DNA of 11,595 nucleotides from a virus (taxonomy: Duplodnaviria > Heunggongvirae > Uroviricota > Caudoviricetes). Position 1 is the first letter of the stretch; each line of letters starts with the position of its first letter. Both the position numbers and the translations under genes were made by a program. The DNA is taken from the IMG/VR virus record IMGVR_UViG_2579778753_000002, positions 1 to 11,595 of that record; one strand, given 5' to 3'. The notes beneath the pieces were generated by a model. That model ran no database searches, had not been told where the DNA came from, and was given only the letters and a program-made list of their open reading frames with translations. This document shows, in pieces, positions 1 through 11,595 of the stretch.

Positions 1-95
1 AGTTTGCTCCTGCCATAACGTGAAGAAGCAATGACCTGGTGGTCCGTGACTTCCCTACGCTGGCATTATCCAGATCAGGTGATACGGGTATTTCT
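1..95 (-). promoter_or_regulatory. thiM: 3' portion of the thiM TPP riboswitch / thiM 5' leader (thi-box 3' helices, P1 3' strand, SD), cut off from its 5' half by the island
   Basis: Reverse complement of 1-95 reads AGAAATACCCGTATCACCTGATCTGGATAATGCCAGCGTAGGGAAGTCACGGACCACCAGGTCATTGCTTCTTCACGTTATGGCAGGAGCAAACT. I recognise this from memory as the 3' two-thirds of the E. coli thiM thi-box leader ending at the SD (GGAG at 6-9, minus). The thiM ATG would lie immediately left of position 1, outside the window. Confidence 0.85.
82..95. repeat. att core / target-site direct repeat, left copy (ATACGGGTATTTCT)
   Basis: Exact 14-bp direct repeat with 11182-11195. Each copy is joined to one half of the thiM riboswitch sequence on its outer side and to island sequence on its inner side. 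Confidence 0.8.
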
Positions 96-154
96 TACTA
101 ATTTTTGTTATCAGTTGATAATTAATAAGTTTTTAAGCATATAAGAATTAAAAA

Positions 155-230
155 CCTCAAAAATGACCACACAACTGACCACACATTTCGTTGAAGCCCT
201 ACGAACAACGACGAACAATAACAAACAAAA
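155..230. repeat. Arm-type direct repeat (left), containing tandem TGACCACACA x2 and CGAACAA x2
   Basis: About 95% identical to 11031-11106 (4 differences over about 75 bp). In an excised circle the two copies would flank the core at roughly 60 and 85 bp, as integrase arm sites do in attP. Confidence 0.6.
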
Positions 231-466
231 GGGAAATTTGCTGGCAGTTTTGCTTAACCGTTATCATTTTTCGGCTATCCGCTATGAAGCTGGTGGATGA
301 TCACGGATAATCCGTTATGTGGATCCCCATATCGGCATCAGGCCCACCAGCGTGAAGCGTTTTTCATTTTTCGCGGGTATAAAAAATCGATGGGGCTGGC
401 AGTCCGGAAGACGTCAGGGTACAGAGATTTGACCCGCCCCTCCCTGTGCATGAGCACAATAAGTAA

Positions 467-490
467 CCGAAGGCGGAATTCCGCCCTCGG
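467..490 (-). terminator. Candidate intrinsic terminator for the leftward TerS-like/95-aa operon
   Basis: CCGAAGGCGG-AATT-CCGCCCTCGG: 10-bp GC-rich stem with one mismatch and a 4-nt loop. On the minus strand it is followed by TTACTTATTGT (T-rich). Confidence 0.4.
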
Positions 491-522
491 TGCTCACATA
501 TGAGAAACGATATTTCTTACAC

Positions 523-628
523 CGATACCCTTTATTTGGGTATCGCGAGTAAGCCCCAAAATCTGGGTGTTACTCTTACTACCCAAACTACGGGTAGTTT
601 CATAGTCGAGTTGCAGATCTGCAACTCG
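523..628. repeat. Cluster of three inverted repeats / palindromes in the island's terminal non-coding region
   Basis: 523-545 CGATACCC-tttattt-GGGTATCG (8-bp perfect stem). 585-600 AAACTAC-gg-GTAGTTT. 607-628 CGAGTTGCAGATCTGCAACTCG (perfect 22-bp palindrome centred on AGATCT/GATC). Confidence 0.6.
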
Positions 629-675
629 CCACCAGTTGCTAAGTGCATTTTTGCACTTTCGGTAATATCAACCAG

Positions 676-963
676 TTACCGCCGTAAGTGCTCCGGCTTC
701 CTCCACTGGTAAGTATTTTTCGCGCTCTCCCTCCGTTGTTGAGAACGGCGACGGTATGCCAGCAACTCAAGAACTCTGGTTCGTATGTTGCGCATATCCA
801 CGCCGTTAAGCTCAATACCGTCACGGCGCATTACCTCAGCCACCACACGCGCGTAATTTTCAGCGGTGACTGTATCCGGCTGCGCGGCCTGTTCGTCAGC
901 CAACTGGCTGATTCCACCAGCACAGCGGATTAATCGCAGTATTTCAGATTCGGTCATTATCAT
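676..963 (-). CDS. Hypothetical protein, 95 aa, Arg-rich basic C-terminus; translationally coupled to the upstream TerS-like gene
   Basis: ATG at 963-961 overlaps the TGA of the preceding ORF (ATGA overlap at 960-963). Ends in a basic tail (RRRSQQRRESAKNTYQWRKPEHLRR). No family recognised. Confidence 0.55.
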   Translation of the reverse strand: MIMTESEILRLIRCAGGISQLADEQAAQPDTVTAENYARVVAEVMRRDGIELNGVDMRNIRTRVLELLAYRRRSQQRRESAKNTYQWRKPEHLRR

Positions 964-1445
964 GCCTGTTTTGCGACCTCATTCACTACGTCATTTTTTA
1001 CCATCCGGCTGATAATCTGATTACGCAAATCGTCAATAATTGACTGCACTCTGTTTACTGCCATCGGTTTAAGCCCGGCATCACGTGCCAGAATATTGGG
1101 GAGTTTTGCCAGTTCCTCGCTTACGATTTCCCCCCATATAGCCATCTCTTTTCGCACATCATCGGCGGGTATGAGTTGCGCCGTTTCCTGTTCGAACCTG
1201 AGGCGCTCACGTTCGGACTGATACCAGGCCTTACGGTCATGTGGCTCCATTTCTTCCAGTGATGCCGGAACGGGAAGATCAAGAAAACAGGTCAGAATGT
1301 CAGTCACCCGATAGAGTTTTAGCTTGTCATGCCCTCCGGCTGGCTGGATGTTTTTCAGCCTTGCCGCCGCAGTCTGACGACATATTCCCGCTATCGCCGC
1401 CAGTTGATTAATGTTCAGCATCAGATTTTTCAGTTCTCGATCCAT
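960..1445 (-). CDS. Nu1-like small terminase-type HTH protein (candidate satellite TerS or Rpp-like packaging-redirection protein), about 161 aa
   Basis: The ORF-track start at 1532 is a TTG. I prefer the ATG at 1445-1443, preceded by GGAG. The N-terminus (MDRELKNLMLNINQLAAIAGICRQTAAARLKN...LYRVTDIL) has the layout of the lambda Nu1 winged-HTH DNA-binding domain, followed by a predicted helical region. Confidence 0.6.
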   Translation of the reverse strand: MDRELKNLMLNINQLAAIAGICRQTAAARLKNIQPAGGHDKLKLYRVTDILTCFLDLPVPASLEEMEPHDRKAWYQSERERLRFEQETAQLIPADDVRKEMAIWGEIVSEELAKLPNILARDAGLKPMAVNRVQSIIDDLRNQIISRMVKNDVVNEVAKQA

Positions 1446-1716
1446 ACCCGCTCCAGAATGTTTTAAACATGCATCTTGCGAACAACTTTCAGAAGAGGTC
1501 AAAAAATGCGCTATATGTTGAGCATAAAACAAGCAAAATTAACATGCCAAAAATAAAAATACTTAAAATTCAATACAATAGAAAGATGATGATGACGAAT
1601 GAAAATGCAAAAACTAGCCTTTTTCCGCGCCGCTCCCGCCCCGTGGCAGGCCACCTCACCGGGAGGACCCACCCAAAAAAGGCGACTGTCACTATTGTTT
1701 ATGCTCCATGAGCGAC

Positions 1717-1738
1717 AAAACCGCCCGCAGGCGGTTTT
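1717..1738 (-). terminator. Rho-independent terminator (usable in both directions) after the gpI-like gene
   Basis: AAAA-CCGCC-cgca-GGCGG-TTTT, 18 nt downstream of the gpI-like stop (1756). Confidence 0.7.
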
Positions 1739-1755
1739 ACATAAAACGTTTTGTA

Positions 1756-2397
1756 TCAGCGACCAATCACCACAATCTGGCCGCCATCCCCTTCATCTGC
1801 TGTGCTGATCTCTTGCGAAATCACCCGCGACCCGACGCGCATTTCACCGTACAGAACAGGCACAACATTGCCCTGGGCAACCATGTTATCCAGAGAGGAG
1901 AAATAGGTGTTCTGCTTACCGTTATCCGTGGTGCTGGCTGTTGCTGTGCTGGCTTTCGGTGCCAGCATCTGTGCAACACCACCAAGTGTCATCGCCGCCC
2001 CCATTGAAAAGAGAATGTCACTGAAAGCGATACTGATTCCTGGCATCCAGATTGCCGTAGCAATCAGCGCCGCACCAAGCACCGCCTGAAACACGCCGCC
2101 ACTTTTGGCACCAGCCAGACGCGGTACGATGTGGATCACGGCACCATTTTCCAGCGGTTCATTAAGACGGGCTGATAATTCGTTTTCGCCTGTATCACGC
2201 CCGGCAATACGCACCTGATACCAACCATCGCTCAGTTTCTGACGAAACGCTGGGATCTGCATGGCCAGCGCCCGGATGGCTTCGGCCCCCGTTTTCACAT
2301 GAAGATCGATGCGGCGGCCAAATCGTTGTAAATCCCCGTAAAGGCAGATGCGTGCCATGCCCGGTGACGCCAGAGGGAGTGTGTGCGTCGCTGCCAT
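1756..2397 (-). CDS. Lambda gpI-like tail tip assembly protein, 213 aa
   Basis: ATG start with an AGAGAGG RBS. The protein (MAATHTLPLASPGMARICLYGDLQRFGRRIDL...ADEGDGGQIVVIGR) matches my recollection of lambda tail assembly protein I almost end to end, with a shorter Gly/Ala-rich central region. Recalled, not searched. Confidence 0.65.
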   Translation of the reverse strand: MAATHTLPLASPGMARICLYGDLQRFGRRIDLHVKTGAEAIRALAMQIPAFRQKLSDGWYQVRIAGRDTGENELSARLNEPLENGAVIHIVPRLAGAKSGGVFQAVLGAALIATAIWMPGISIAFSDILFSMGAAMTLGGVAQMLAPKASTATASTTDNGKQNTYFSSLDNMVAQGNVVPVLYGEMRVGSRVISQEISTADEGDGGQIVVIGR

Positions 2398-2486
2398 TTG
2401 TCGGTATACCTCTCTCGTTTGCTCAGTTGTTCAGGAATATGGTGCGGCAGCTCGCCGCCCCACGTGTTCAAAGTACCGCCTTGTTG

Positions 2487-4400
2487 TCATGCTCCATTCG
2501 ATTTCAGCAATCCACGATAATCGAGGGCCGCGACACCTGCATCTATGCGCACCTTCCAGGCGACACCATCAACAGTAAAGCCCACCTGCTCCTCAAGATA
2601 TGGCGTATCCATACCATCAAGATAAGCGACTTCTATTGTGTCCATCCCCTTAGCTGCGGCTACATACCATTCCTTGCTATTGGCCTTATCAAGACGTGGC
2701 TCAACAATTACTTCTGCCATATCTTTCACAACGTTAATGATGCCGGGGTTCTGATTGATAGTACCCTCATCACCAACCGGAAAGACTGATGACGATGACA
2801 GAATGGCGCGACGCGCGGCAGATTCCAGCGCGGCAGGGACCAGAACAAAAGCAGGGGTAATATTCAGTGAGTCGCCGTTAGCATCCTCCTGGAGGCGCAT
2901 CAGCTTACGGGCTTCATCAAGCCCCACCATGTCCATATCCTTCGCAATAAGATTTTTATGATCGGCATGGAATAACGCTTTACCATCCGTAAACTTGCCG
3001 TTGCTGGTTAACAGGAGATAAACCAGATTGCCAACTGTTCTGGCGGCTGCGCGTCCCATCGCCATGGGGATTGTAGTTAACTGGGTCAGGTCATCGTTGA
3101 TAATGGCCTGACGGGTAACGGAAAAAATATTCCCGTACGTGGCCAGCGCAATAGGTACACCTTTATCGCTGGTGGTGATGTATTTATATTCCGCACCTTC
3201 CGGTACTTTATCCAGCTTTGAAAAACCATTCAGACCAACGCGCTTTGCTTCATGAAAGTTTGAAAGCGAACCGGTACGCGTCCATTTCTGGAACGTTTCG
3301 CCGCTGTCCTGCCAGCCTTTCAGTACAGATTTTTCAGCCCCACCAGCCAGAATATGAGAAAAATCACTGCTGCTGTGTGTAAAAGCCGCATTAACAACCT
3401 GCGAGCGATTAATAAAACCACTCACAGTGATACCACGATCAACCAGTGATGCCTGGGCCATTTCAAAAAGGCTCATCATCGCGTAAGGGTTGCCTCGTTC
3501 AGGGCGTTCATACCCAAGACGGGAATAAAGCCCCTGACGAATTGCATCACCTGTTATGTTTCCGTTTCCGGCATAGATATGAGGCGGAGTATTTTTATTG
3601 GATGGCGTGGACTCGCGCCCCAGCTCGTTCAACAGCTTTTCACGGGCCATTTCCGGTGTACATGATGCATCTTCCAGACACGCCATTTTGATCCCGTCGT
3701 AACGACTGCCGAACAGGCTAAACACTTCACTTATTCCATTGATGCGCTTCTGTTCATTACCAGCAATATTTGCCGCTCCCTGTGGCGGTGTAATCATTCC
3801 TTTAATGGTTTCCGGCATATGTAAAAAATCTCCTGTGCGCTTCGATTCAATTCGCGCCATTGCTCTGACGGATGGCAACAATTCATCAGCAAAACCGTGC
3901 TTAAGGCATTCTTTCCCGTCCATCCAGGTTTCATCTTCCAGCATGGCGGTAATTTCCTGTGCTGATTTGCCCGTTTTTCTGGCATAAGCAGGGACTAACA
4001 CGGTTTCCACCTTATCCAGCAAATCAGCATAATCACGCATATCACCAGCATTTCCGCCAGAGATACCCCACGGCTTATGTATCATCATCATGGCGTTTTC
4101 CGGCATCACAACACGATCGCCAGCCATTGCGACCACCGAAGCCATTGAAGCCGCAACACCATCGATATAAACCGTAATGTCTGCCGGATGATTCCGTAGC
4201 AGGTTATAGATGGCGATGCCTTCAAACACATCACCACCTGGTGAATGGATCCTCAGATTGATATGTGAAACATCGCCAAGGGCTTTCAGGTCTTCCGCGA
4301 ACTGCTTTGCAGTAACACCGAAGCCGCCAATCTCCTCATAGATAGATATATCCGCCGCTCCGCGAACATCCGCCGCCTTAATGGTGTACCAGCGATTCAT
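2487..4400 (-). CDS. Fusion of ClpP/S14-type prohead protease (N-terminal), linker/scaffold-like segment and HK97-fold major capsid protein (C-terminal), 637 aa
   Basis: N-terminus has ClpP-like motifs (HSPGGDVFEGIAIYN, GVAASMASVVAMAGD, MMMIHKPWG). The C-terminal 350 aa or so looks like a phage major capsid protein (ITPAFVLVPAALESAARRAI..., FTVDGVAWKVRIDAGVAALDYRG). ATG start with a GGGGGAA RBS. Long ORF with no internal stops. Confidence 0.85.
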   Translation of the reverse strand: MNRWYTIKAADVRGAADISIYEEIGGFGVTAKQFAEDLKALGDVSHINLRIHSPGGDVFEGIAIYNLLRNHPADITVYIDGVAASMASVVAMAGDRVVMPENAMMMIHKPWGISGGNAGDMRDYADLLDKVETVLVPAYARKTGKSAQEITAMLEDETWMDGKECLKHGFADELLPSVRAMARIESKRTGDFLHMPETIKGMITPPQGAANIAGNEQKRINGISEVFSLFGSRYDGIKMACLEDASCTPEMAREKLLNELGRESTPSNKNTPPHIYAGNGNITGDAIRQGLYSRLGYERPERGNPYAMMSLFEMAQASLVDRGITVSGFINRSQVVNAAFTHSSSDFSHILAGGAEKSVLKGWQDSGETFQKWTRTGSLSNFHEAKRVGLNGFSKLDKVPEGAEYKYITTSDKGVPIALATYGNIFSVTRQAIINDDLTQLTTIPMAMGRAAARTVGNLVYLLLTSNGKFTDGKALFHADHKNLIAKDMDMVGLDEARKLMRLQEDANGDSLNITPAFVLVPAALESAARRAILSSSSVFPVGDEGTINQNPGIINVVKDMAEVIVEPRLDKANSKEWYVAAAKGMDTIEVAYLDGMDTPYLEEQVGFTVDGVAWKVRIDAGVAALDYRGLLKSNGA

Positions 4401-4606
4401 TGTTCCCCCACCGATGCAAAACCATTCTGATTAAGCCAGGTGTTTACGGCATGTCTGACAATCTGCGCCACACCTGGTAATGGTTGGTCAGGATGATGAT
4501 TTATATGGTCGATCCTGTACTGCTTAAGGCGCATAACGGTCTGCGCATCCAGATGAACGGAACCACCTCTGGTATCACCTGTATTCAGGTCATTAATACA
4601 ACTCAC
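4397..4606 (-). CDS. Hypothetical small protein (69 aa), translationally coupled to the protease-capsid gene
   Basis: GTG start at 4606 preceded by AGAGGAAG. Its TGA overlaps the ATG of the capsid gene (ATGA at 4397-4400). Confidence 0.5.
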   Translation of the reverse strand: MSCINDLNTGDTRGGSVHLDAQTVMRLKQYRIDHINHHPDQPLPGVAQIVRHAVNTWLNQNGFASVGEQ

Positions 4607-4708
4607 AGCAACTTCCTCTGACTGACTAAACTATGCACATTATTGATCGATAAAAGTGGTAAATAAACATGTTTCTATCATAAAAACAGATTAATTAGAT
4701 TCAGACAC

Positions 4709-4731
4709 AAAAAAGCCGGATTTCTCCGGCT
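4709..4731 (-). terminator. Rho-independent terminator ending the replication operon / ori region
   Basis: On the minus strand: AGCCGGA-gaaa-TCCGGCT followed by TTTTTTG. Confidence 0.65.
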
Positions 4732-4867
4732 TCTGTCACTCGTTGCTTAAAACGGTATGTTATCCCCGTACGGATCATCATTCCCCGCCTGTTGTTTTGG
4801 TGTGCTTCGCTGTCATAGGCTTTATCTCACAGCAGTAAATTAAAATTTTTGCGTTTTAACCCTTCAC

Positions 4868-5090
4868 CTGTTCACCTTTTGATATTTTCTCTTTTAATTC
4901 ATAATGTTAAGGGGTGAACAGTTTCAAAAAAACTATTCACCAACTGTTCACCACTGTTCACCCTTGAAGCTCAATAAACAATCAAAAAGGTGAACAGTGA
5001 ATAGTTTGGTGAACAGTTCATAAATAACTGTTCACCCTATAATATACTGATATAAAAGATATTTATGACAGGGTGAACAGTGGTGAACAG
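4868..5090. repeat. Iteron array (at least 9 copies of GGTGAACAG / CTGTTCACC in both orientations) with an AT-rich stretch: candidate P4-type origin of replication
   Basis: Direct copies at 4913, 4989, 5009, 5072, 5082. Inverted copies at 4868, 4944, 4954, 5029. Degenerate copies at 4933 and 4997. AT-rich 5041-5069. Sits immediately 3' of the alpha-like gene. The motif contains TGTTCACC, which I recall as the P4 alpha-binding type I iteron. Confidence 0.75.
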
Positions 5091-5103
5091 TTATTCCATA
5101 AGT

Positions 5104-6921
5104 TTAATTTTTGCTATCGTCATTAGTGACCGATACACATGATGGCATCCAGTCTTCTGATTCCTCCGTCAGTGTCACGTTTGAACGCAAACCGTGCTTC
5201 GTTTTCCGTTTCATATACTCCCTGCCATATTCCGCCATTGCCCCCGGCATATCTTTACCGAAGCGCGTCAGTGTTACAGGTTTACCAAACCCATGTGCCC
5301 TCATATAAGCCAGATAGGCATGATAGAGATACCTGCGTGGGCTGAATGGCACAATTTCAGCATTACCCACTAACAGGCCATCACACATTACCGACGCCAT
5401 GAGATAGCCGCAGAAGTCCACCAGCGAATCCCCCTCTCGCTTTATCGCCAGTGCTTCTTCTGATTTCTGCTGCTCATATAACAGGCGTCTGGCTTCGTCC
5501 TGGTCAGCAAACCGTGTAAGCAGATGGCGAATCACTACCGCCAGCTCACCTTCTATTTTTTCCGCCAGCATTGGATCACGTTCGTTCTCCGGTACAACTT
5601 CCGAAAAATTGAATATCACCCGACGACGTGAGATCCCCCCGCTGCGGTCACTGAATGACATGGCGTTATTGTTAACCGCCAGCACTACTGCCGGAATACG
5701 CGTTGAGTAGGGGGCTTTGTGTTTCGGGTCAATTGCCACCTTGTCACCGCCTGTAATAGCCTTAATCCCTGCCCCATCACCAGCGTAGCGGGTCATATCC
5801 GGCATGATAATCAGCGAAAAGCCAACCACTAACGCGCGTTCCCTTGCATCTTCCAGCGCCTTCATGCTTGCCGATACTGTGTTGGCCTTACCCGCCAGCA
5901 TGGTGCAAATCTCCGCCATCACGCTTTTACCACTTCCCCCTGGACCTGTTACCTCAATGAATAACTGCCAGTCGTACCGGTTCGCCAGCACCATGAATAA
6001 TGCAGCCAGTACGCGATCCGCCTTGCGGTCATTCTCAGCCACCGAACGGCGTAACCACTTCCAGAAATTCGGCGCATGTGTTGCCAGCATTTCCCCCTCT
6101 GCTGGTGGGCTGAAAGGTAATTCACTGGCAATTAACAACCAGTCGTTTTTGTTATGCTCCCGAAAATTACCTGTTCTGGTATCAAATACCCCGTTACTGA
6201 ATCCAATCAGGTTACGGGCTGTATTCCCCATTACAGGCAAACTTAACTTCATGGTATCGACCGCCGATTTAATGGCGTTCTGCGAATAGCTGATCTCCGC
6301 ATCAATGAAAATCTGCGCCATAGCTCGCTGTAATTCTTTATCCTGTACTGGCTCCCATACAACGCCGTTGTAATGGTGAACAGTGTCAGAGTCAGCATGA
6401 ATCGCCAGTTCACCGCCATAATGTGCCAGGAGAACTTCGCCGCGTTGACTTGCTCCCATCTGGTTAAGCGCCAGTGATGAAGCGTTATCGTCTTTTACCC
6501 GCTCTTTTTTCTTTACAGGCAGTTCAACTACCTTTTTCTTTTCCTCCAGCTCTGCCCGTTCACGTTCCAGATATTCGCGCCAGTTCTCCCGTTTCTGGCT
6601 GTGCATTCCTTCAGGGTAATAATCAGCATCCCTGACACCTGCCGCTGCCAGTTTCTGCCCGATGGTATTAACAAGCCCCGGACGCAATAACCCCGCCTGA
6701 TAGAGACGCACGCGATAGCGTCCGTCCGGTACGATTTGCAGGTTGTCCAGTTCGGCAAGTTGTTGCTCTCCAAGCCAGACAGGAGGCACGTTATCGCCAG
6801 CCAGTCGCCCGTCCTGTTCCTGCCACTGCTTCGCATGTGCCCACGCATTACTACCCGCAAAAATGATGACTTCCGTCATTTTGTCACGCGGCTGGTGTTT
6901 TAAATTTGGCGCTTTTTTCAT
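5104..6921 (-). CDS. P4 alpha-like replication protein (D5_N-type domain plus SF3 helicase with Walker A GPGGSGKS; phage/plasmid primase P4-family C-terminal region)
   Basis: About 605 aa from the ATG at 6921 (GGAG RBS); the ORF track extends to a GTG at 6936. Walker A VTGPGGSGKS, Walker B-like LVVGFSLIIMPD. Adjacent to the iteron array. Confidence 0.85.
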   Translation of the reverse strand: MKKAPNLKHQPRDKMTEVIIFAGSNAWAHAKQWQEQDGRLAGDNVPPVWLGEQQLAELDNLQIVPDGRYRVRLYQAGLLRPGLVNTIGQKLAAAGVRDADYYPEGMHSQKRENWREYLERERAELEEKKKVVELPVKKKERVKDDNASSLALNQMGASQRGEVLLAHYGGELAIHADSDTVHHYNGVVWEPVQDKELQRAMAQIFIDAEISYSQNAIKSAVDTMKLSLPVMGNTARNLIGFSNGVFDTRTGNFREHNKNDWLLIASELPFSPPAEGEMLATHAPNFWKWLRRSVAENDRKADRVLAALFMVLANRYDWQLFIEVTGPGGSGKSVMAEICTMLAGKANTVSASMKALEDARERALVVGFSLIIMPDMTRYAGDGAGIKAITGGDKVAIDPKHKAPYSTRIPAVVLAVNNNAMSFSDRSGGISRRRVIFNFSEVVPENERDPMLAEKIEGELAVVIRHLLTRFADQDEARRLLYEQQKSEEALAIKREGDSLVDFCGYLMASVMCDGLLVGNAEIVPFSPRRYLYHAYLAYMRAHGFGKPVTLTRFGKDMPGAMAEYGREYMKRKTKHGLRSNVTLTEESEDWMPSCVSVTNDDSKN

Positions 6922-7217
6922 TTCTGCTCTCTCCACGCGGCAATCATGTTTTTCAGTTCCTGTAGTTTTTTATCAACATCCATACATGACACATGGTTAT
7001 TTCTGGAAGGCGGGATTTCCCGCCGGAATCTGCAAATAAAGATCTCCACGTTCAGCGAACTATGAAATGAATAGCCATCACGAATAAAATACACACGGTC
7101 AAACATCAGTTCTTTTACCGTTACTCTGTTACCGTTCTTATCCAGATAAATAGCGCCGGGGATAATTTTGGGGTGTGCATAACCGCTGGCAGTCAAGCCA
7201 GATATATATGTTCTCAT
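6918..7217 (-). CDS. Hypothetical protein (99 aa), translationally coupled to the alpha-like gene
   Basis: ATG start. Its TGA overlaps the ATG of the alpha-like gene (ATGA at 6918-6921). No family recognised. Confidence 0.55.
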   Translation of the reverse strand: MRTYISGLTASGYAHPKIIPGAIYLDKNGNRVTVKELMFDRVYFIRDGYSFHSSLNVEIFICRFRREIPPSRNNHVSCMDVDKKLQELKNMIAAWREQK

Positions 7218-7223
7218 GATTAT

Positions 7224-7544
7224 TTATCCCCGATTTGAATCAGTATTCGCTTTCTTTATGGCATTTAATGCATCTGTGGCATTTTCAATGGTGCACCGTA
7301 ACGAAATATCAAACTGCCCAAGCATTGCCAGTAACAAACCGATATTACCCATATCAATGCGCATGGCCTTTTCGTCATAGTCCTCATTTTCTGACGCATG
7401 CCACATCAGGCTACCAATTGACGCAATACCCATTGATATATTGTCAGTAGCCCCATCCGCAGCGGAATAAACCTTTTTAGCAATATCATGCTCACAGTTA
7501 AAATGCGGATTAATCAGGTACTGGTAATTGGTCATGTCAGGCAT
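7224..7544 (-). CDS. Hypothetical acidic protein (106 aa)
   Basis: ATG at 7544 preceded by AGGGGGGG. Ends 7 nt before the next gene in the same operon. No family recognised. Confidence 0.55.
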   Translation of the reverse strand: MPDMTNYQYLINPHFNCEHDIAKKVYSAADGATDNISMGIASIGSLMWHASENEDYDEKAMRIDMGNIGLLLAMLGQFDISLRCTIENATDALNAIKKANTDSNRG

Positions 7545-7740
7545 GGCACCCCCCCTGACGAATACGGGCGGCGAATACCATCACGCAGCCAGCCGGGGAT
7601 TGCTGGCGTGCTTCCTGTTCGCTGGTGGCCACGATGGTAATCACGCGCGGTTGTGCCGTGCTCAGGGCGATAAAACGCCAGATGTATTTATTCAGGTTGT
7701 GCGAGTCCCGCCCTTGCGGGTGTGTGGTATGATTTCTCAT
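7537..7740 (-). CDS. Possible small protein (67 aa), first gene of the replication operon
   Basis: ATG at 7740 with GAGG 7 nt upstream. Its stop overlaps the 106-aa start by 8 nt (ATGCCTGA). It is the C-terminal segment of a long, otherwise implausible 362-aa ORF. Confidence 0.35.
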   Translation of the reverse strand: MRNHTTHPQGRDSHNLNKYIWRFIALSTAQPRVITIVATSEQEARQQSPAGCVMVFAARIRQGGCHA

Positions 7741-7838
7741 AGCTGCCTCGATAATCTTGCTATCGTTGGTGGTTAGAAGCCCCGTTACTGCTCCTACAGT
7801 GCGGGGTTTCGTCGTTTCTGCACCTTGCATTAACAAGG

Positions 7839-7916
7839 TGTAAGTAACTTTATTTATAGGTGGCTTACATGTCAATGCTTTTATGTAAGACTTTTTATGT
7901 GTATATTGTCTTACAC
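7839..7916. promoter_or_regulatory. Divergent promoter/operator region with four GTAAG/CTTAC half-sites
   Basis: Half-sites at 7840, 7864, 7885, 7910, including CTTACAT-N12-ATGTAAG. Minus-strand promoter candidate: -35 TTGACA (7875-7870), 17-bp spacer, -10 TAAAGT (7852-7847). Plus-strand candidate -10 TATATT (7902-7907). Confidence 0.45.
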
Positions 7917-7936
7917 TTTCATTGAGAGGATTACAG

Positions 7937-8242
7937 ATGGCTACAGGTTCAAAAAACGCAAAATCACAATCACTGACAGCTCGGATCCCGCATGATGTTA
8001 TTGAAGGCATGGAATCCGTAAAACTGGACGGTGAAAGCAACGCCGGATTCATAGTAACCGCCATGCGCGGTGAAATCGCCCGCCGCCAGGCAGAAGGAAG
8101 CGGAGAAAACCTCCTGGTTTCTTCGCTCGATGCCCTAGCGCAGGTGGAAAAAATCGGAGTCAAAGCCGCCGAGGAGATCGGGCAACTCGTCACCGTCGCG
8201 CGTGAAGAACTCCAGCGACGCAAGGTCAAAGAGCAGGAATAG
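7937..8242 (+). CDS. Ribbon-helix-helix-like putative DNA-binding regulator (101 aa)
   Basis: ATG at 7937 with GAGAGGA 6 nt upstream (the ORF track's 7922 start is a TTG). N-terminal beta-strand-plus-helix pattern (SLTARIPHDVIEGMESVKL). Transcribed opposite to the rest of the island. Confidence 0.55.
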   Translation: MATGSKNAKSQSLTARIPHDVIEGMESVKLDGESNAGFIVTAMRGEIARRQAEGSGENLLVSSLDALAQVEKIGVKAAEEIGQLVTVAREELQRRKVKEQE

Positions 8243-8299
8243 CCACTATCAGCGCCATAGTTTGAGGAACGCAGGCGCATTGCTTTACAGGACAGCACC

Positions 8300-8479
8300 A
8301 TGAGCGACACAGAATCAACCAAAACACCATCACCAACTCGTAAGAGACGACGCAAAAATATAGCGCATGAACATGAATCAGAAAGATTCGCACCTTGTTC
8401 GTTTGCTCTTGAGAAATTCCTTAAAGAGCACAGGAAAAAGCTCTCGTTGCAAACCTTGGAACGAACCAAATCTGACTGA
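8300..8479 (+). CDS. Possible small basic protein (59 aa), downstream of the RHH-like gene
   Basis: ATG at 8300, in-frame TGA at 8477-8479, just below the 60-aa track cutoff. Lys/Arg-rich N-terminus (TRKRRRKNIAHEHE). Followed by a strong terminator. Confidence 0.35.
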   Translation: MSDTESTKTPSPTRKRRRKNIAHEHESERFAPCSFALEKFLKEHRKKLSLQTLERTKSD

Positions 8480-8546
8480 TCACATTGCCCACCAGCCGCA
8501 AATGTGGCATTGTTGGCGATGCGTTCAAGTTTAGTGTGTATCCATT

Positions 8547-8575
8547 GGCGACCGCCCCCGGTCGCCTTTGTTTTA
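8547..8575 (+). terminator. Rho-independent terminator of the rightward RHH-like operon
   Basis: GGCGACCG-cccc-CGGTCGCC (8-bp perfect stem) followed by TTTGTTTTAT. Confidence 0.8.
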
Positions 8576-8593
8576 TATGTCATATGCTCCCCT

Positions 8594-8818
8594 TTACGCT
8601 GCCTTACCTGAATTAACGCGGTCACGGCTTTGCACCCAGTCCATAACTTCGGAAAGCAACCAGCCTACAGAACGCCCCCCAAGATTACGGCGAGACGGAA
8701 AGCCCCCTTTCTTCTCCAGTTCGTAGCGTGTAGTACGGCTGACGCCTGTTAACTTACGACATTCATCCTCACGAATTACGCGATCTGTTAGTGATTGAAA
8801 TTGTGTATTTTGATTCAT
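8594..8818 (-). CDS. alpA: AlpA-family prophage transcriptional regulator (74 aa)
   Basis: ATG with GAGGGTG RBS. HTH region (CRKLTGVSRTTRYELEKKGGFPSRRNLGGRSVGW) matches the AlpA/MerR-like fold found next to P4-type integrases. Confidence 0.85.
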   Translation of the reverse strand: MNQNTQFQSLTDRVIREDECRKLTGVSRTTRYELEKKGGFPSRRNLGGRSVGWLLSEVMDWVQSRDRVNSGKAA

Positions 8819-8921
8819 AAAAACACCCTCGAACGTAACCGAACAAGGGCATCTTATTTACCATAGCAGTTGGTGCAATATTGGAAAAATAAACTTTATT
8901 CTAATTTATCGTTCTCCATGA

Positions 8922-9776
8922 TTAATTTTCATTAGATAACATTTTTCTTATTTTTTCTAAAGAATCGCTGCGCATTATTTTTTCTAAGAAGGGTTTTACA
9001 GTCTGAGCAATAGCAAAGGTGTCCTTTTCACCATCAGGATACAAAGATACGGCAAGCACCCCTAATGAAATTTTTCTATCTGTAGACAACTCCCAAGATA
9101 ATAAGTCAATTAATGGGATTATCTTATAATCAATAATTTTACGTCGTATGCTCTCCCAACTTCCTGCAATTGGTTTGTCTGGCTCAACAATTGAAAGTTC
9201 ACTACGCCATTTTGGTAATAGTTTTGTAAACGCTTCAATCAACTCATCATCTCTGTTATGTAGTAAGTCAACAGAAACAAGCATATTATCTAATGTATCA
9301 GAAAGGAGATTCACTGGTTCACGCATCACAGCCCAAAACATCCCATTATCTTCTGATATTAAACTTCCAACCATCTCATTATCTATGATGATTGGTTTAT
9401 CCTTCCAATATCCTCTTTCCGCAGTCAGTTTATTAATCATTGATATATCAAACCTTGTTACAGGTTTAATTCCATCATCATAACTTAGCTCAATTAACTT
9501 CGGTTGCACTTTATGGTCATATTCTTTTTGTTTATCACAAAACCAATCGTCTTCTTTCAGCTCTCCAAATGGATCCCCGTAATTATTATGCAACGGGTAT
9601 TCAGCACCAAACATAAATCCATATTCAGGCATCTCAGAATGTTTCATCGTTAAATCATCTTGTCGCCAATATAATTGGCGAAATAGATCTTTATCCGACA
9701 AGTTTTCTAGGCAATCATATTTGCCTAAATCAAATGACTTTGGTAAATCTTTTTTACTATTTACTTTTTTCGTCAT
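8922..9776 (-). CDS. Hypothetical protein (284 aa), AT-rich cargo gene between int and alpA
   Basis: Uninterrupted 855-nt ORF. Its ATG overlaps the int TGA (ATGA at 9773-9776). Visibly more AT-rich than the flanking int and alpA. No recognisable catalytic motif. Confidence 0.75.
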   Translation of the reverse strand: MTKKVNSKKDLPKSFDLGKYDCLENLSDKDLFRQLYWRQDDLTMKHSEMPEYGFMFGAEYPLHNNYGDPFGELKEDDWFCDKQKEYDHKVQPKLIELSYDDGIKPVTRFDISMINKLTAERGYWKDKPIIIDNEMVGSLISEDNGMFWAVMREPVNLLSDTLDNMLVSVDLLHNRDDELIEAFTKLLPKWRSELSIVEPDKPIAGSWESIRRKIIDYKIIPLIDLLSWELSTDRKISLGVLAVSLYPDGEKDTFAIAQTVKPFLEKIMRSDSLEKIRKMLSNEN

Positions 9777-10993
9777 TGTATCCCTCTCAATATCACAATA
9801 TTTTCATTATATCCTGCAATCATATCAAGACGCTCAACCCATAGATTCAGTGCGTCCCGTTTCGCCTGCAAATAGCGTGAATGGTTATAGGTTTTTTGCT
9901 GACCTGGCATCTGATGCGCTGTGATGTGCTCCACGATATGCGGATCGACACCTAAATCATTCAGCATAGTTGTAAACGTGTGTCGGAAATCATGCAGCGT
10001 CCAGTGTTCCTGCTTAAGCCGCTTATGCGCATTTCGTCCATATTGCGCCACCGTGGTATCTTTTTTCAGTTCGCCGAGTAATAACCCAGTGTGTGCGTTT
10101 TGCTCCACCAGCTTCTGAATGAACGGCAAAATACCATCAGGAATAGGTCGGAATATTGTTACCTTCGTTTTGCTGTGCTCTTTTGGCACTGTCCACAACA
10201 TTTCTTTCAGATCCCATTCTTTGATCTCTGAAAGTCTGATCTCTGCCGTTCTGCACCCGAACACAATTAACAAGCGCATTAACGCACTGTAATAGGGAGC
10301 GAACACATCACCATCAATAGCGCGTAGAATTTCTTTTAGTTCGCTGTTGCTGTGCACTCTCTCGCGGATTTCTGCTCTCTTACCCACATCAGTAACGATC
10401 AAATCGTCCAGGGCGTTGCTAAACGCGTAGCGCCGCCTGCGGCAAAACTTTAGCGCCTGTTTGCATGTCTGCATGACATGGCCCGCTGCTACTGGTGCTT
10501 TTTTTCGTACGCGGTCAAAACATGCGATCCACTGCCTTGTATCACACTTATCAAGGGGAATTGCCCCAATATGGCAAATGATGTGCTTATCCATACGCTG
10601 CACCAGCTTTATGTAATCTTTGCGGTTATCCTTCGCGTATTCCTCCAGCCAGTAGTTAATCGCTTCCTTCACCGTAACGGGTTTTAGTGCTTCCTGTACT
10701 GTGGCGCACAACTCATAACGGGGGTTTTTACCCTCAGCCAGCCATGCCCGGCACAGTGTGCGTTTTTCCCTTGCGGCTTTCAGCGACAATTCAGGGTAAG
10801 CCCCCAGCTTTAACCGCTCTGCGGCAACCTCACGGCCTCCCGTTCGGTACCGGAAATACCAGGTTAATTTGCCGCCCTTTGAGTGTTTAATCTCCAGCCC
10901 GCCCCCGTCGGAGTAAAAACGCTCTTTTTCTGCCTGGACAGCCGCCAATTTTTTTAACGTCGAATCGCTCAGTTTGTTTAGTGCTTTTCCCAC
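9773..10993 (-). CDS. int: P4-family tyrosine integrase (406 aa)
   Basis: GTG start with GAGGA RBS. N-terminal arm-binding-type region (GGLEIKHSKGGKLTWYFRYR...GAYPELSLKAAREKR). C-terminal catalytic region with HDFRHTF and a downstream Tyr. Adjacent to the att site. Confidence 0.9.
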   Translation of the reverse strand: MGKALNKLSDSTLKKLAAVQAEKERFYSDGGGLEIKHSKGGKLTWYFRYRTGGREVAAERLKLGAYPELSLKAAREKRTLCRAWLAEGKNPRYELCATVQEALKPVTVKEAINYWLEEYAKDNRKDYIKLVQRMDKHIICHIGAIPLDKCDTRQWIACFDRVRKKAPVAAGHVMQTCKQALKFCRRRRYAFSNALDDLIVTDVGKRAEIRERVHSNSELKEILRAIDGDVFAPYYSALMRLLIVFGCRTAEIRLSEIKEWDLKEMLWTVPKEHSKTKVTIFRPIPDGILPFIQKLVEQNAHTGLLLGELKKDTTVAQYGRNAHKRLKQEHWTLHDFRHTFTTMLNDLGVDPHIVEHITAHQMPGQQKTYNHSRYLQAKRDALNLWVERLDMIAGYNENIVILRGIQ

Positions 10994-11030
10994 TATCAGA
11001 TCCTCTTTTCAGTCCTCCAGCCTCAAAAAA

Positions 11031-11106
11031 CTGACCACACAACTGACCACACATTTTGTTGAAGCTCTACGAACAACGACGAACAACAACAAACAATAAA
11101 ACAGGA
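11031..11106. repeat. Arm-type direct repeat (right), partner of 155-230
   Basis: Same tandem TGACCACACA and CGAACAA sub-repeats. Lies in the int upstream region, about 40 bp from the int start. Confidence 0.6.
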
Positions 11107-11181
11107 TAATTTATTGTTTATCAAATACATACATAAACAACCACAAGCAACCCCGAACCACAAAAAACACTAAATGAGAAA

Positions 11182-11195
11182 ATACGGGTATTTCT
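11182..11195. repeat. att core / target-site direct repeat, right copy
   Basis: Identical to 82-95. Confidence 0.8.
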
Positions 11196-11238
11196 CAGCC
11201 TTCACGCAGAAGGGCACCCCGAGTCGTTTGGTTGCGAT
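11182..11238 (-). promoter_or_regulatory. thiM: 5' portion of the thiM TPP riboswitch aptamer (P1 5' strand, P2, P3, CUGAGA), separated from its 3' half
   Basis: Reverse complement reads CAACCAAACGACTCGGGGTGCCCTTCTGCGTGAAGGCTGAGAAATACCCGTAT, which I recognise as the 5' half of the thiM thi-box. Confidence 0.85.
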
Positions 11239-11322
11239 GATAAATCGCAGAGGAGGATGGTAATGTCCAGCGCACGCGTTGTAAACGAGGAAAAACGGCA
11301 GTTTTACAATCGCGTTAATAAA

Positions 11323-11595
11323 TTATTTGATATATGAATCCAGCACCTTCAGAACGACATCCAGATCTTCTTCACGTTTTAGCTCATCCCCCTGGTGAAC
11401 GATGTGTTCCGTCAGATGACCTTTAATCACTTCCCGCATCAGACCGTTTACCGCGCCACGGATAGCAGCAATCTGTTGTAAAACTGCAGCGCATTCGTGC
11501 GGCTCGTCGAGCATTTTCTTGAGCGCCACGACCTGGCCCTGAATCTTACTGGCACGCGCTTTCAGTTTCTGTTTATCACGGATTGTATGAGACAT
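11323..11595 (-). CDS. rcnR: RcnR, Ni/Co-responsive transcriptional repressor (CsoR/RcnR family), 90 aa, complete
   Basis: ATG at 11595. The protein ([64 protein letters not shown]...) matches my recollection of E. coli RcnR, including the His-Cys metal-site signature. Confidence 0.9.

Follow-up and report, generated by a model that had tools for sequence, protein, structure and literature searches.

What becomes of thiM and thiD when a mobile element comes to lie between these genes and the promoter and riboswitch that serve them? The question is raised by IMG/VR virus record IMGVR_UViG_2579778753_000002, a stretch of 11,595 nucleotides (the window, analyzed over its whole length) whose left end abuts the Escherichia coli thiM gene. 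The window contains an 11.1-kb satellite (96-11181) integrated at a 14-bp core inside the aptamer of the thiM thiamine pyrophosphate (TPP) riboswitch. As to the consequence, we give a little better than an even chance to the reading that thiMD would be insulated and blind to TPP, with no more than low, leaky expression, and that its disruption would be collateral rather than an evolved switch.

The window has two copies, and no more, of the 14-bp core ATACGGGTATTTCT (0 expected), and identity between the island end and the native thiM leader ends at this core. Direct core repeats at both ends, with a tyrosine integrase adjoining the right-hand copy, are the marks of site-specific integration. 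The two attachment (att) core copies and the sequences stranded at the right-hand end are as follows.

82-95: att core copy adjoining thiM, ATACGGGTATTTCT on the plus strand and AGAAAUACCCGUAU in RNA, spanning J3/2 and the P2 3' strand
11182-11195: second att core copy, an exact repeat
11194-11227, minus strand: 5' half of the TPP aptamer, now cut off from the rest (P1 5' strand, P2 5' strand, P3 and CUGAG), facing the integrase gene (int)
11237-11285, minus strand: native thiM promoter region, with candidates TTTACA-17-TACCAT and TTACCA-15-TATCAT
11323-11595, minus strand: rcnR, in the host flank

Joining the flanks at the core (1-95 plus 11196 onward) gives 227 nt that are 100% identical to many island-free E. 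coli genomes, and RefSeq annotates a riboswitch in genomes matching this joined sequence. The thiM-leader site is uninterrupted in 4728 of the 5426 complete E. coli genomes that made up our survey set. Because the joined flanks match empty sites, precise excision would restore the wild-type thiM leader and its riboswitch. A first-pass annotation of this DNA had proposed both that thiMD is cut off from its promoter and from an intact riboswitch and that excision would restore regulation; the junction, the core repeat and the empty-site match confirm the first point, and the identity of the joined flanks to empty sites supports the second. The stranded thiM promoter region and aptamer half face int on the same strand, ~240 nt upstream of the int start. 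int has a promoter-like site of its own (TTGATA-17-TTTTAT at 11096-11124, minus strand), and transcription of int from the host thiM promoter is possible.

Read on the minus strand from 95 to 1, the window gives AGAAAUACCCGUAUCACCUGAUCUGGAUAAUGCCAGCGUAGGGAAGUCACGGACCACCAGGUCAUUGCUUCUUCACGUUAUGGCAGGAGCAAACU. This is the 3' portion of the leader of E. coli thiM, with identity from AGAAAUACCCGUAU to the base preceding the thiM ATG. The window holds no thiM coding sequence, the ATG lying just left of base 1. In the carrier Ecol_224 (98.9% identical), thiM occupies 12212-13000, window base 1 aligns at 13001 and thiD comes next. The leader that remains beside thiM contains these elements.

1-34, minus strand: 3' end of the thiM 5' untranslated region, with the Shine-Dalgarno sequence (SD) AGGAG at 7-11 and the anti-SD UGCUUCUUC at 22-30
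12-64, minus strand: anti-sequestering (ON-state) hairpin in the predicted fold, GGGAAG paired with CUUCUU
53-81, minus strand: P4/P5 arm of the TPP aptamer, the pyrophosphate sensor, still in place (cmscan alignment)

The pyrophosphate-sensor arm and the thiM expression platform are kept (53-81 and 1-64 match the native leader without a difference), and the 3' strands of P2 and P1 are also left at thiM. P1 and the pyrimidine-sensor arm (P2, P3 and J3/2 CUGAGA) are not formed there; thiMD lies 11.1 kb from its own promoter and from the native 5' half of the aptamer, which does the pyrimidine sensing. The Rfam TPP model (RF00059, cmscan) aligns at 35-169 on the minus strand with 33.3 bits, below its gathering score of 54.3, and the same model gives 71.2 bits at an uninterrupted site. 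Leader identity and this score bear out the earlier description of a half-aptamer that keeps the SD and expression platform without the 5' ligand-binding elements. One could suppose that a working riboswitch is rebuilt from the island end, much as islands that target tRNAs restore the tRNA they enter; this idea has a vanishingly small chance of being right and was rejected. It could appeal to the way cmscan stretches the full-length model over 35-169, and other islands at this site do rebuild the riboswitch; however, the alignment requires a 48-nt insert and leaves the P1, P2 and P3 positions unpaired, its score is below threshold, native-leader identity stops at the core, and RefSeq annotates no riboswitch before thiM in 10 of 10 carriers examined.

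Those other islands, here called class B, show what rebuilding looks like. They carry a second integrase (435 aa) that uses the same thiM leader in 192 of the 5426 genomes (~3.5% of sequenced E. coli), including ATCC 8739 and B7A; it has no significant pairwise similarity to the window integrase (best BLASTP segment E = 0.52). An 82-bp repeat, CAACCAAACG...GCGTAGGG, bounds the class B islands on either side and is seen at the following aptamer-repeat loci.

1765-1861 and 10666-10761 of locus L006 (ATCC 8739)
2984-3079 of locus L002

Because this repeat covers almost the whole aptamer, class B carriers have a complete, RefSeq-annotated riboswitch before thiM. The class B DNA upstream of thiM contains a promoter-like TTGCAT-17-TAAGCT at the native distance (8.6 bits by the position-weight matrix, PWM, described below), and a second near-complete TPP aptamer (61.3 bits) lies directly upstream of the class B integrase gene. 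A replacement of the target is therefore detectable when it is present. In the O157 strain NZRM3614 (locus L003, 3131-5400), a class B island end lies upstream of the thiM aptamer without an integrase, together with a helix-turn-helix-like gene and the same promoter-like site; this sequence looks like a decayed class B island that now supplies the thiM promoter.

Between the core and the last island open reading frame (ORF; 95 aa, stopping at 676) lie 580 bp (96-675) without a supported gene. Plus-strand ORFs at 297-503 and 500-712 have no PHROG match and were treated as spurious. In some carriers RefSeq places a plus-strand 'hypothetical protein' across the half-aptamer and the attachment arm beyond it (L009 1831-2100 and L012 1963-2100, about window 31-300); this, too, is probably spurious, comparable window ORFs having no PHROG match. 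The first-pass annotation had called these 580 bp island non-coding DNA, which holds insofar as no gene is supported there, but the stretch is not anonymous: it contains a cos site, a terminator and one arm of the island attachment site (attP). Its features, with the second attP arm, are listed here.

96 to about 302: attP arm, conserved with an O157 Al Ain element of different cargo and the same core
10994-11181: integrase-proximal attP arm, with arm-type repeats at 11031-11053 and the promoter-like site at 11096-11124 (minus strand)
267-349: cos site, matching the genome ends of SfII, SfV, SfI and ST64B, as well as the annotated phiP27 cos-site, at 92-95% identity
456-491, minus strand: intrinsic-terminator-like hairpin with a T-poor tail, past the last island gene and facing thiM
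526-628: inverted repeats, imperfect at 526-596 and forming a perfect palindrome of 22 bp at 607-628

Conservation of the arm from 96 to about 302 in an element with other cargo and the same core places this arm in the integration module. Its first part (96-160) has only 18% G+C. The motif (C/A)TGACCACACA occurs in two copies at 163-185 and two more at 11031-11053 (0.17 expected); it lies in a ~75-bp block (155-235) that is repeated at 11021-11100 and so flanks the core on both sides, a layout usual for the arm-type sites of integrases. We take 267-349 to be the satellite cos site because it matches phage genome ends and the annotated phiP27 cos-site. Deposited ends of SfII/SfV/SfI/ST64B-type phages map to ~297-313 within it, and the satellite in this way has a packaging signal matching that of a helper-type phage, as phage-inducible chromosomal islands (PICIs) do. 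The terminator-like hairpin (466-491, minus strand) is built of 11 pairs, 8 being G-C, with a fold z-score of -4.95, and is followed by the tail TACTTATTGT, which contains only 5 U in 8 (UACUUAUUGU). An identical hairpin is found in the SMS-3-5 element, whose packaging genes differ. The candidate terminator that had been placed at 467-490 has its strong hairpin and this conservation in its favor, and its tail against it.

A strict sigma-70 scan of the minus strand of 1-676 found no promoter. A second scan used a home-made, approximate PWM, run against two backgrounds. The best thiM-facing site downstream of the terminator scored 3.9-5.2 bits, compared with a median best of 8.9 bits in shuffled sequence and with 9.9-10.4 bits for the native thiM promoter region. 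Within thiM, the best candidate for an internal thiD promoter scored 7.3 bits, under the shuffle median of 8.3. Because no thiM-facing promoter rises above chance and the terminator is conserved across different cargo, the sequence evidence leans to insulation of thiMD. The first-pass annotation had set transcription by the island, free of TPP control, against a block at the terminator; these are the right alternatives.

In the native thiM switch, TPP binding stabilizes the aptamer and P1, and a stem forms that sequesters the ribosome-binding site and AUG; without TPP, an anti-sequestering stem exposes the ribosome-binding site (PMC5499598). Repressed thiM translation triggers Rho termination in early thiM (PMC5499598). 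Leader folds and SD accessibilities were obtained here as thermodynamic predictions only. For each of the 8 tested 5' ends (window 100 to 465), the hybrid leader's minimum-free-energy fold includes the anti-sequestering hairpin (12-64), and the SD is predicted to be unpaired with probability 0.74-0.79 in short hybrid leaders versus 0.48 in the ligand-free native leader. We infer from these folds that any transcript reaching thiM would be translated without TPP control.

These observations can be assembled into a mechanism. Satellite integration leaves thiM-thiD with nothing beyond the SD, the anti-sequestering stem and the arm for pyrophosphate sensing. TPP would be unable to bind or to form P1, and the leader would therefore be locked in a translation-competent ON fold. 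Transcription into thiM would be limited to leak through the 456-491 terminator or to weak starts in the AT-rich attP arm, so that thiMD would be insulated, TPP-blind and low in expression at most; such leaky expression may cover the trace need for ThiD. The integrase would be targeting a conserved RNA-coding sequence, with the disruption of thiMD as a by-product.

Several points weigh against this low, leaky state. The O157 Al Ain variant of the attP arm has a 7.2-bit promoter-like site in its AT-rich stretch, and weak promoters in the AT-rich 96-160 could be overlooked by a simple matrix. The T-poor tail may allow substantial read-through of the terminator whenever the island late operon is active. 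With longer 5' ends, SD accessibility falls to 0.2-0.5 through predicted long-range pairing. The remaining points concern the genes themselves: several carrier thiM/thiD alleles occur in non-carriers too, and intact ORFs may reflect recent acquisition only; the de novo role of ThiD (see below), together with intact thiM/thiD and no promoter predicted for thiD within thiM, speaks for some persisting expression or for the use of exogenous thiamine.

Substantial constitutive expression, in which a promoter in the attP arm or read-through from the operon of the small terminase (TerS)-like and 95-aa genes drives thiMD at or above the wild-type level without TPP control, draws on some of the same facts: the retained ON-state fold with an open SD in short leaders, the AT-rich arm with its 7.2-bit relative in O157 Al Ain, and the T-poor tail. 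It is unlikely, with an appreciable residual chance, given that no site in the arm of the window itself reaches the shuffle median, that the terminator hairpin is strong, and that the late operon of such a satellite would normally be silent without a helper (our reading of PMC6092414).

The opposite extreme turns on what ThiD does and on how widely the insertion has spread. ThiM is a salvage enzyme. ThiD also phosphorylates hydroxymethylpyrimidine phosphate (HMP-P) to the pyrophosphate (HMP-PP) on the de novo thiamine route (PMC3020362), so the earlier view of thiMD as serving thiamine salvage only does not hold. As ThiD is needed de novo, a fully silent thiMD predicts thiamine auxotrophy. The thiM-side junction (window 1-260, at least 80% covered) is present in 76 of the 5426 genomes and the rcnR-side junction (window 10950-11330) in 72; both attP arms are present, never contiguous, in 81, and at least 80% of the whole window in 18. 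Insertion into the thiM riboswitch by the window's lineage thus affects ~1.5% of complete E. coli genomes. Among GTDB species representatives, the integrase protein found no match and the junction pattern was absent as well. We sampled 10 carriers, including ST131, ST648-like, enterotoxigenic E. coli (ETEC), O114:H49, O157 Al Ain and SMS-3-5; in all 10, thiM and thiD (263 and 267 codons, stop included) are intact and the junction is the same. This absence of decay in 10/10 carriers is uninformative if acquisition was recent. A search for literature on thiamine phenotypes of the carrier strains found nothing relevant.

Complete silencing would mean that thiMD is kept off by the terminator together with the absence of a promoter, and that carriers are auxotrophs living on gut or environmental thiamine. 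The promoter scans, the conserved terminator and a de novo requirement for ThiD combined with no predicted internal thiD promoter all point that way. Against it, the insertion is present in ~72-81 genomes of many lineages and hosts, including environmental isolates, both genes are intact wherever they were sampled, and a vitamin-level need would be satisfied by trace expression. Terminators with T-poor tails are, moreover, rarely complete. We think complete silencing improbable, to much the same degree as strong constitutive expression, and prefer insulation with a low, leaky output.

The first-pass annotation had gone on to suggest that the element acts as a reversible regulatory switch. We found no evidence for this: any precisely excising element restores its own site, and satellites normally excise on helper phage induction, usually ending in lysis. 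Regulated gene integrity, whereby the satellite would excise and reintegrate without cell death and so switch thiMD reversibly, is a concept established for other islands (PMC10111431, PMC7192596), and the window element cuts its target without a replacement in attP, would restore the wild-type site exactly on excision and encodes an AlpA-like excisionase/regulator. However, nothing points to non-lytic, cue-dependent excision: a contiguous attP, the mark of the excised form, was found in none of the 5426 E. coli assemblies, and the attP pattern was absent from IMG/VR. The element is also fully equipped as a helper-dependent satellite, with cos, TerS and capsid, and thiamine status is not visibly linked to the island regulators. 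To a thiMD switch we give only a slight chance.

The satellite genes (96-11181) all lie on the thiM strand, and those with assignments are given from int toward thiM.

10993-9773, minus strand: tyrosine integrase, with Phage_integrase and an Arm-DNA-bind_3 N-terminus (domain match)
9776-8922, minus strand: DUF6387
8818-8594, minus strand: AlpA-like excisionase/regulator
8625-7537, minus strand: 362-aa protein with a repressor-like C-terminus
7217-6918, minus strand: DUF4222
6936-5104, minus strand: D5-type primase
4400-2487, minus strand: ClpP-protease/major-capsid fusion
2397-1756, minus strand: lambda tail-assembly-I-like protein
1445-960, minus strand: small-terminase-like protein (DUF1441, phrog_141)
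963-676, minus strand: last island gene, 95 aa (phrog_1561), no assigned function

An integrase, an AlpA-type regulator and a primase in one direction, within the ~10-15 kb range and without lysis genes or a full tail module, give the element the features of a PICI, and its organization fits the criteria for Gram-negative PICIs in PMC6092414. It is a PICI-like phage satellite, and its make-up points to helper-dependent mobilization; helper-dependent induction of such satellites is described in PMC6092414. About 10 copies of GGTGAACAGT, in both orientations, lie at 4867-5096 just downstream of the primase gene, and these iterons are probably the satellite replication origin. A weak MIR1508 Rfam match at 4930-5019 was dismissed as a chance match to the iteron-rich inverted repeats. 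The lambda tail-assembly-protein-I-like gene (1756-2397) is unusual cargo for an element without a tail module; close relatives have a truncated 'phage tail protein' pseudogene beside it (L007 4104-4265).

The cargo (about 311/330 to 8786) is found at other chromosomal sites with other integration modules, and the int/attP module is therefore exchangeable. At thiM, the int/DUF6387/attP module (96-310 plus 8787-11181) is associated with at least 2 cargo types, one with a DUF1441 TerS and the protease-capsid fusion, the other with P27-type small and large terminases (TerS/TerL). The pattern points to modular exchange between satellites, with break points near cos and near alpA. NZ_CP148328.1, a separate 10,790-bp record in one assembly, matches window 330-8786 at 98.5% identity, which suggests an excised or episomal form of a related satellite with another integration module.

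The insertion amounts to a natural experiment on the value of a riboswitch: ~1.5% of sequenced E. coli have thiM-thiD without the TPP sensor and promoter, and another 3.5% carry an island that rebuilds both. With ThiD on the de novo route, whether thiMD is silent, leaky or driven comes down to a simple growth phenotype. As a mechanism, site-specific integration with a polar effect is nothing unusual. What it adds is that a riboswitch aptamer joins tRNA, tmRNA and ffs as conserved RNA-coding landing sites of integrases; in the searchable literature, which leaves subscription journals outside coverage, there is no description of the thiM riboswitch, or of any riboswitch, as an attachment site. 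A more ambitious account would make the thiM TPP riboswitch a recurrent hot spot for two unrelated integrase lineages (together ~5%), one restoring it and the window's breaking it, with the carriers of the latter being natural thiMD knock-outs, conditional auxotrophs or strains switched by excision or induction. Taken as a whole, we consider this account quite unlikely.

Elements that disrupt genes are well known, among them SpyCIM1 in mutL, phi10403S in comK and skin in sigK. As a rule, attP carries a replacement for the target, and the exceptions are candidates for regulated gene integrity (PMC10111431); on its sequence, the satellite in the window is such an exception. Like the elements of that group, including HE-PICIs in prophage late genes (PMC10111431), it cuts a transcription unit, has an attP without a replacement, and would restore the site on excision; SpyCIM1 and the HE-PICIs are, in addition, PICI-like and co-oriented with their targets, as it is. 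The gene-integrity elements cut coding sequence, whereas this satellite cuts a riboswitch aptamer and leaves the genes intact without promoter and sensor, and the regulated, non-lytic excision that marks gene-integrity switches is not indicated for it.

With tRNA and tmRNA islands and with class B, the satellite shares a structured RNA-coding attB, an arm-binding tyrosine integrase and arm-type repeats on both sides. Those islands restore their target; this one shares 14 bp only and restores nothing. With Gram-negative PICIs of the EcCICFT073 type and capsid-forming PICIs (cf-PICIs), it shares the int-AlpA-primase order, a single direction and a size of ~11 kb (PMC6092414), and, like E. coli PICIs, it has its own cos, a small-terminase-like gene and a dedicated chromosomal att site (PMC6092414). 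It differs from E. coli PICIs in carrying a protease-major-capsid fusion and a tail-assembly-I-like gene, and it lacks both a portal and a large terminase; relatives using this att site carry P27-type TerS/TerL in their place. The hybrid leader, for its part, resembles, in its predicted fold, engineered thiM riboswitch mutants that are truncated or do not bind TPP (such as G40A, PMC5499598), which adopt the ON state with the anti-sequestering stem. Such mutants keep the native promoter, whereas in carriers of the satellite thiMD loses the promoter too.

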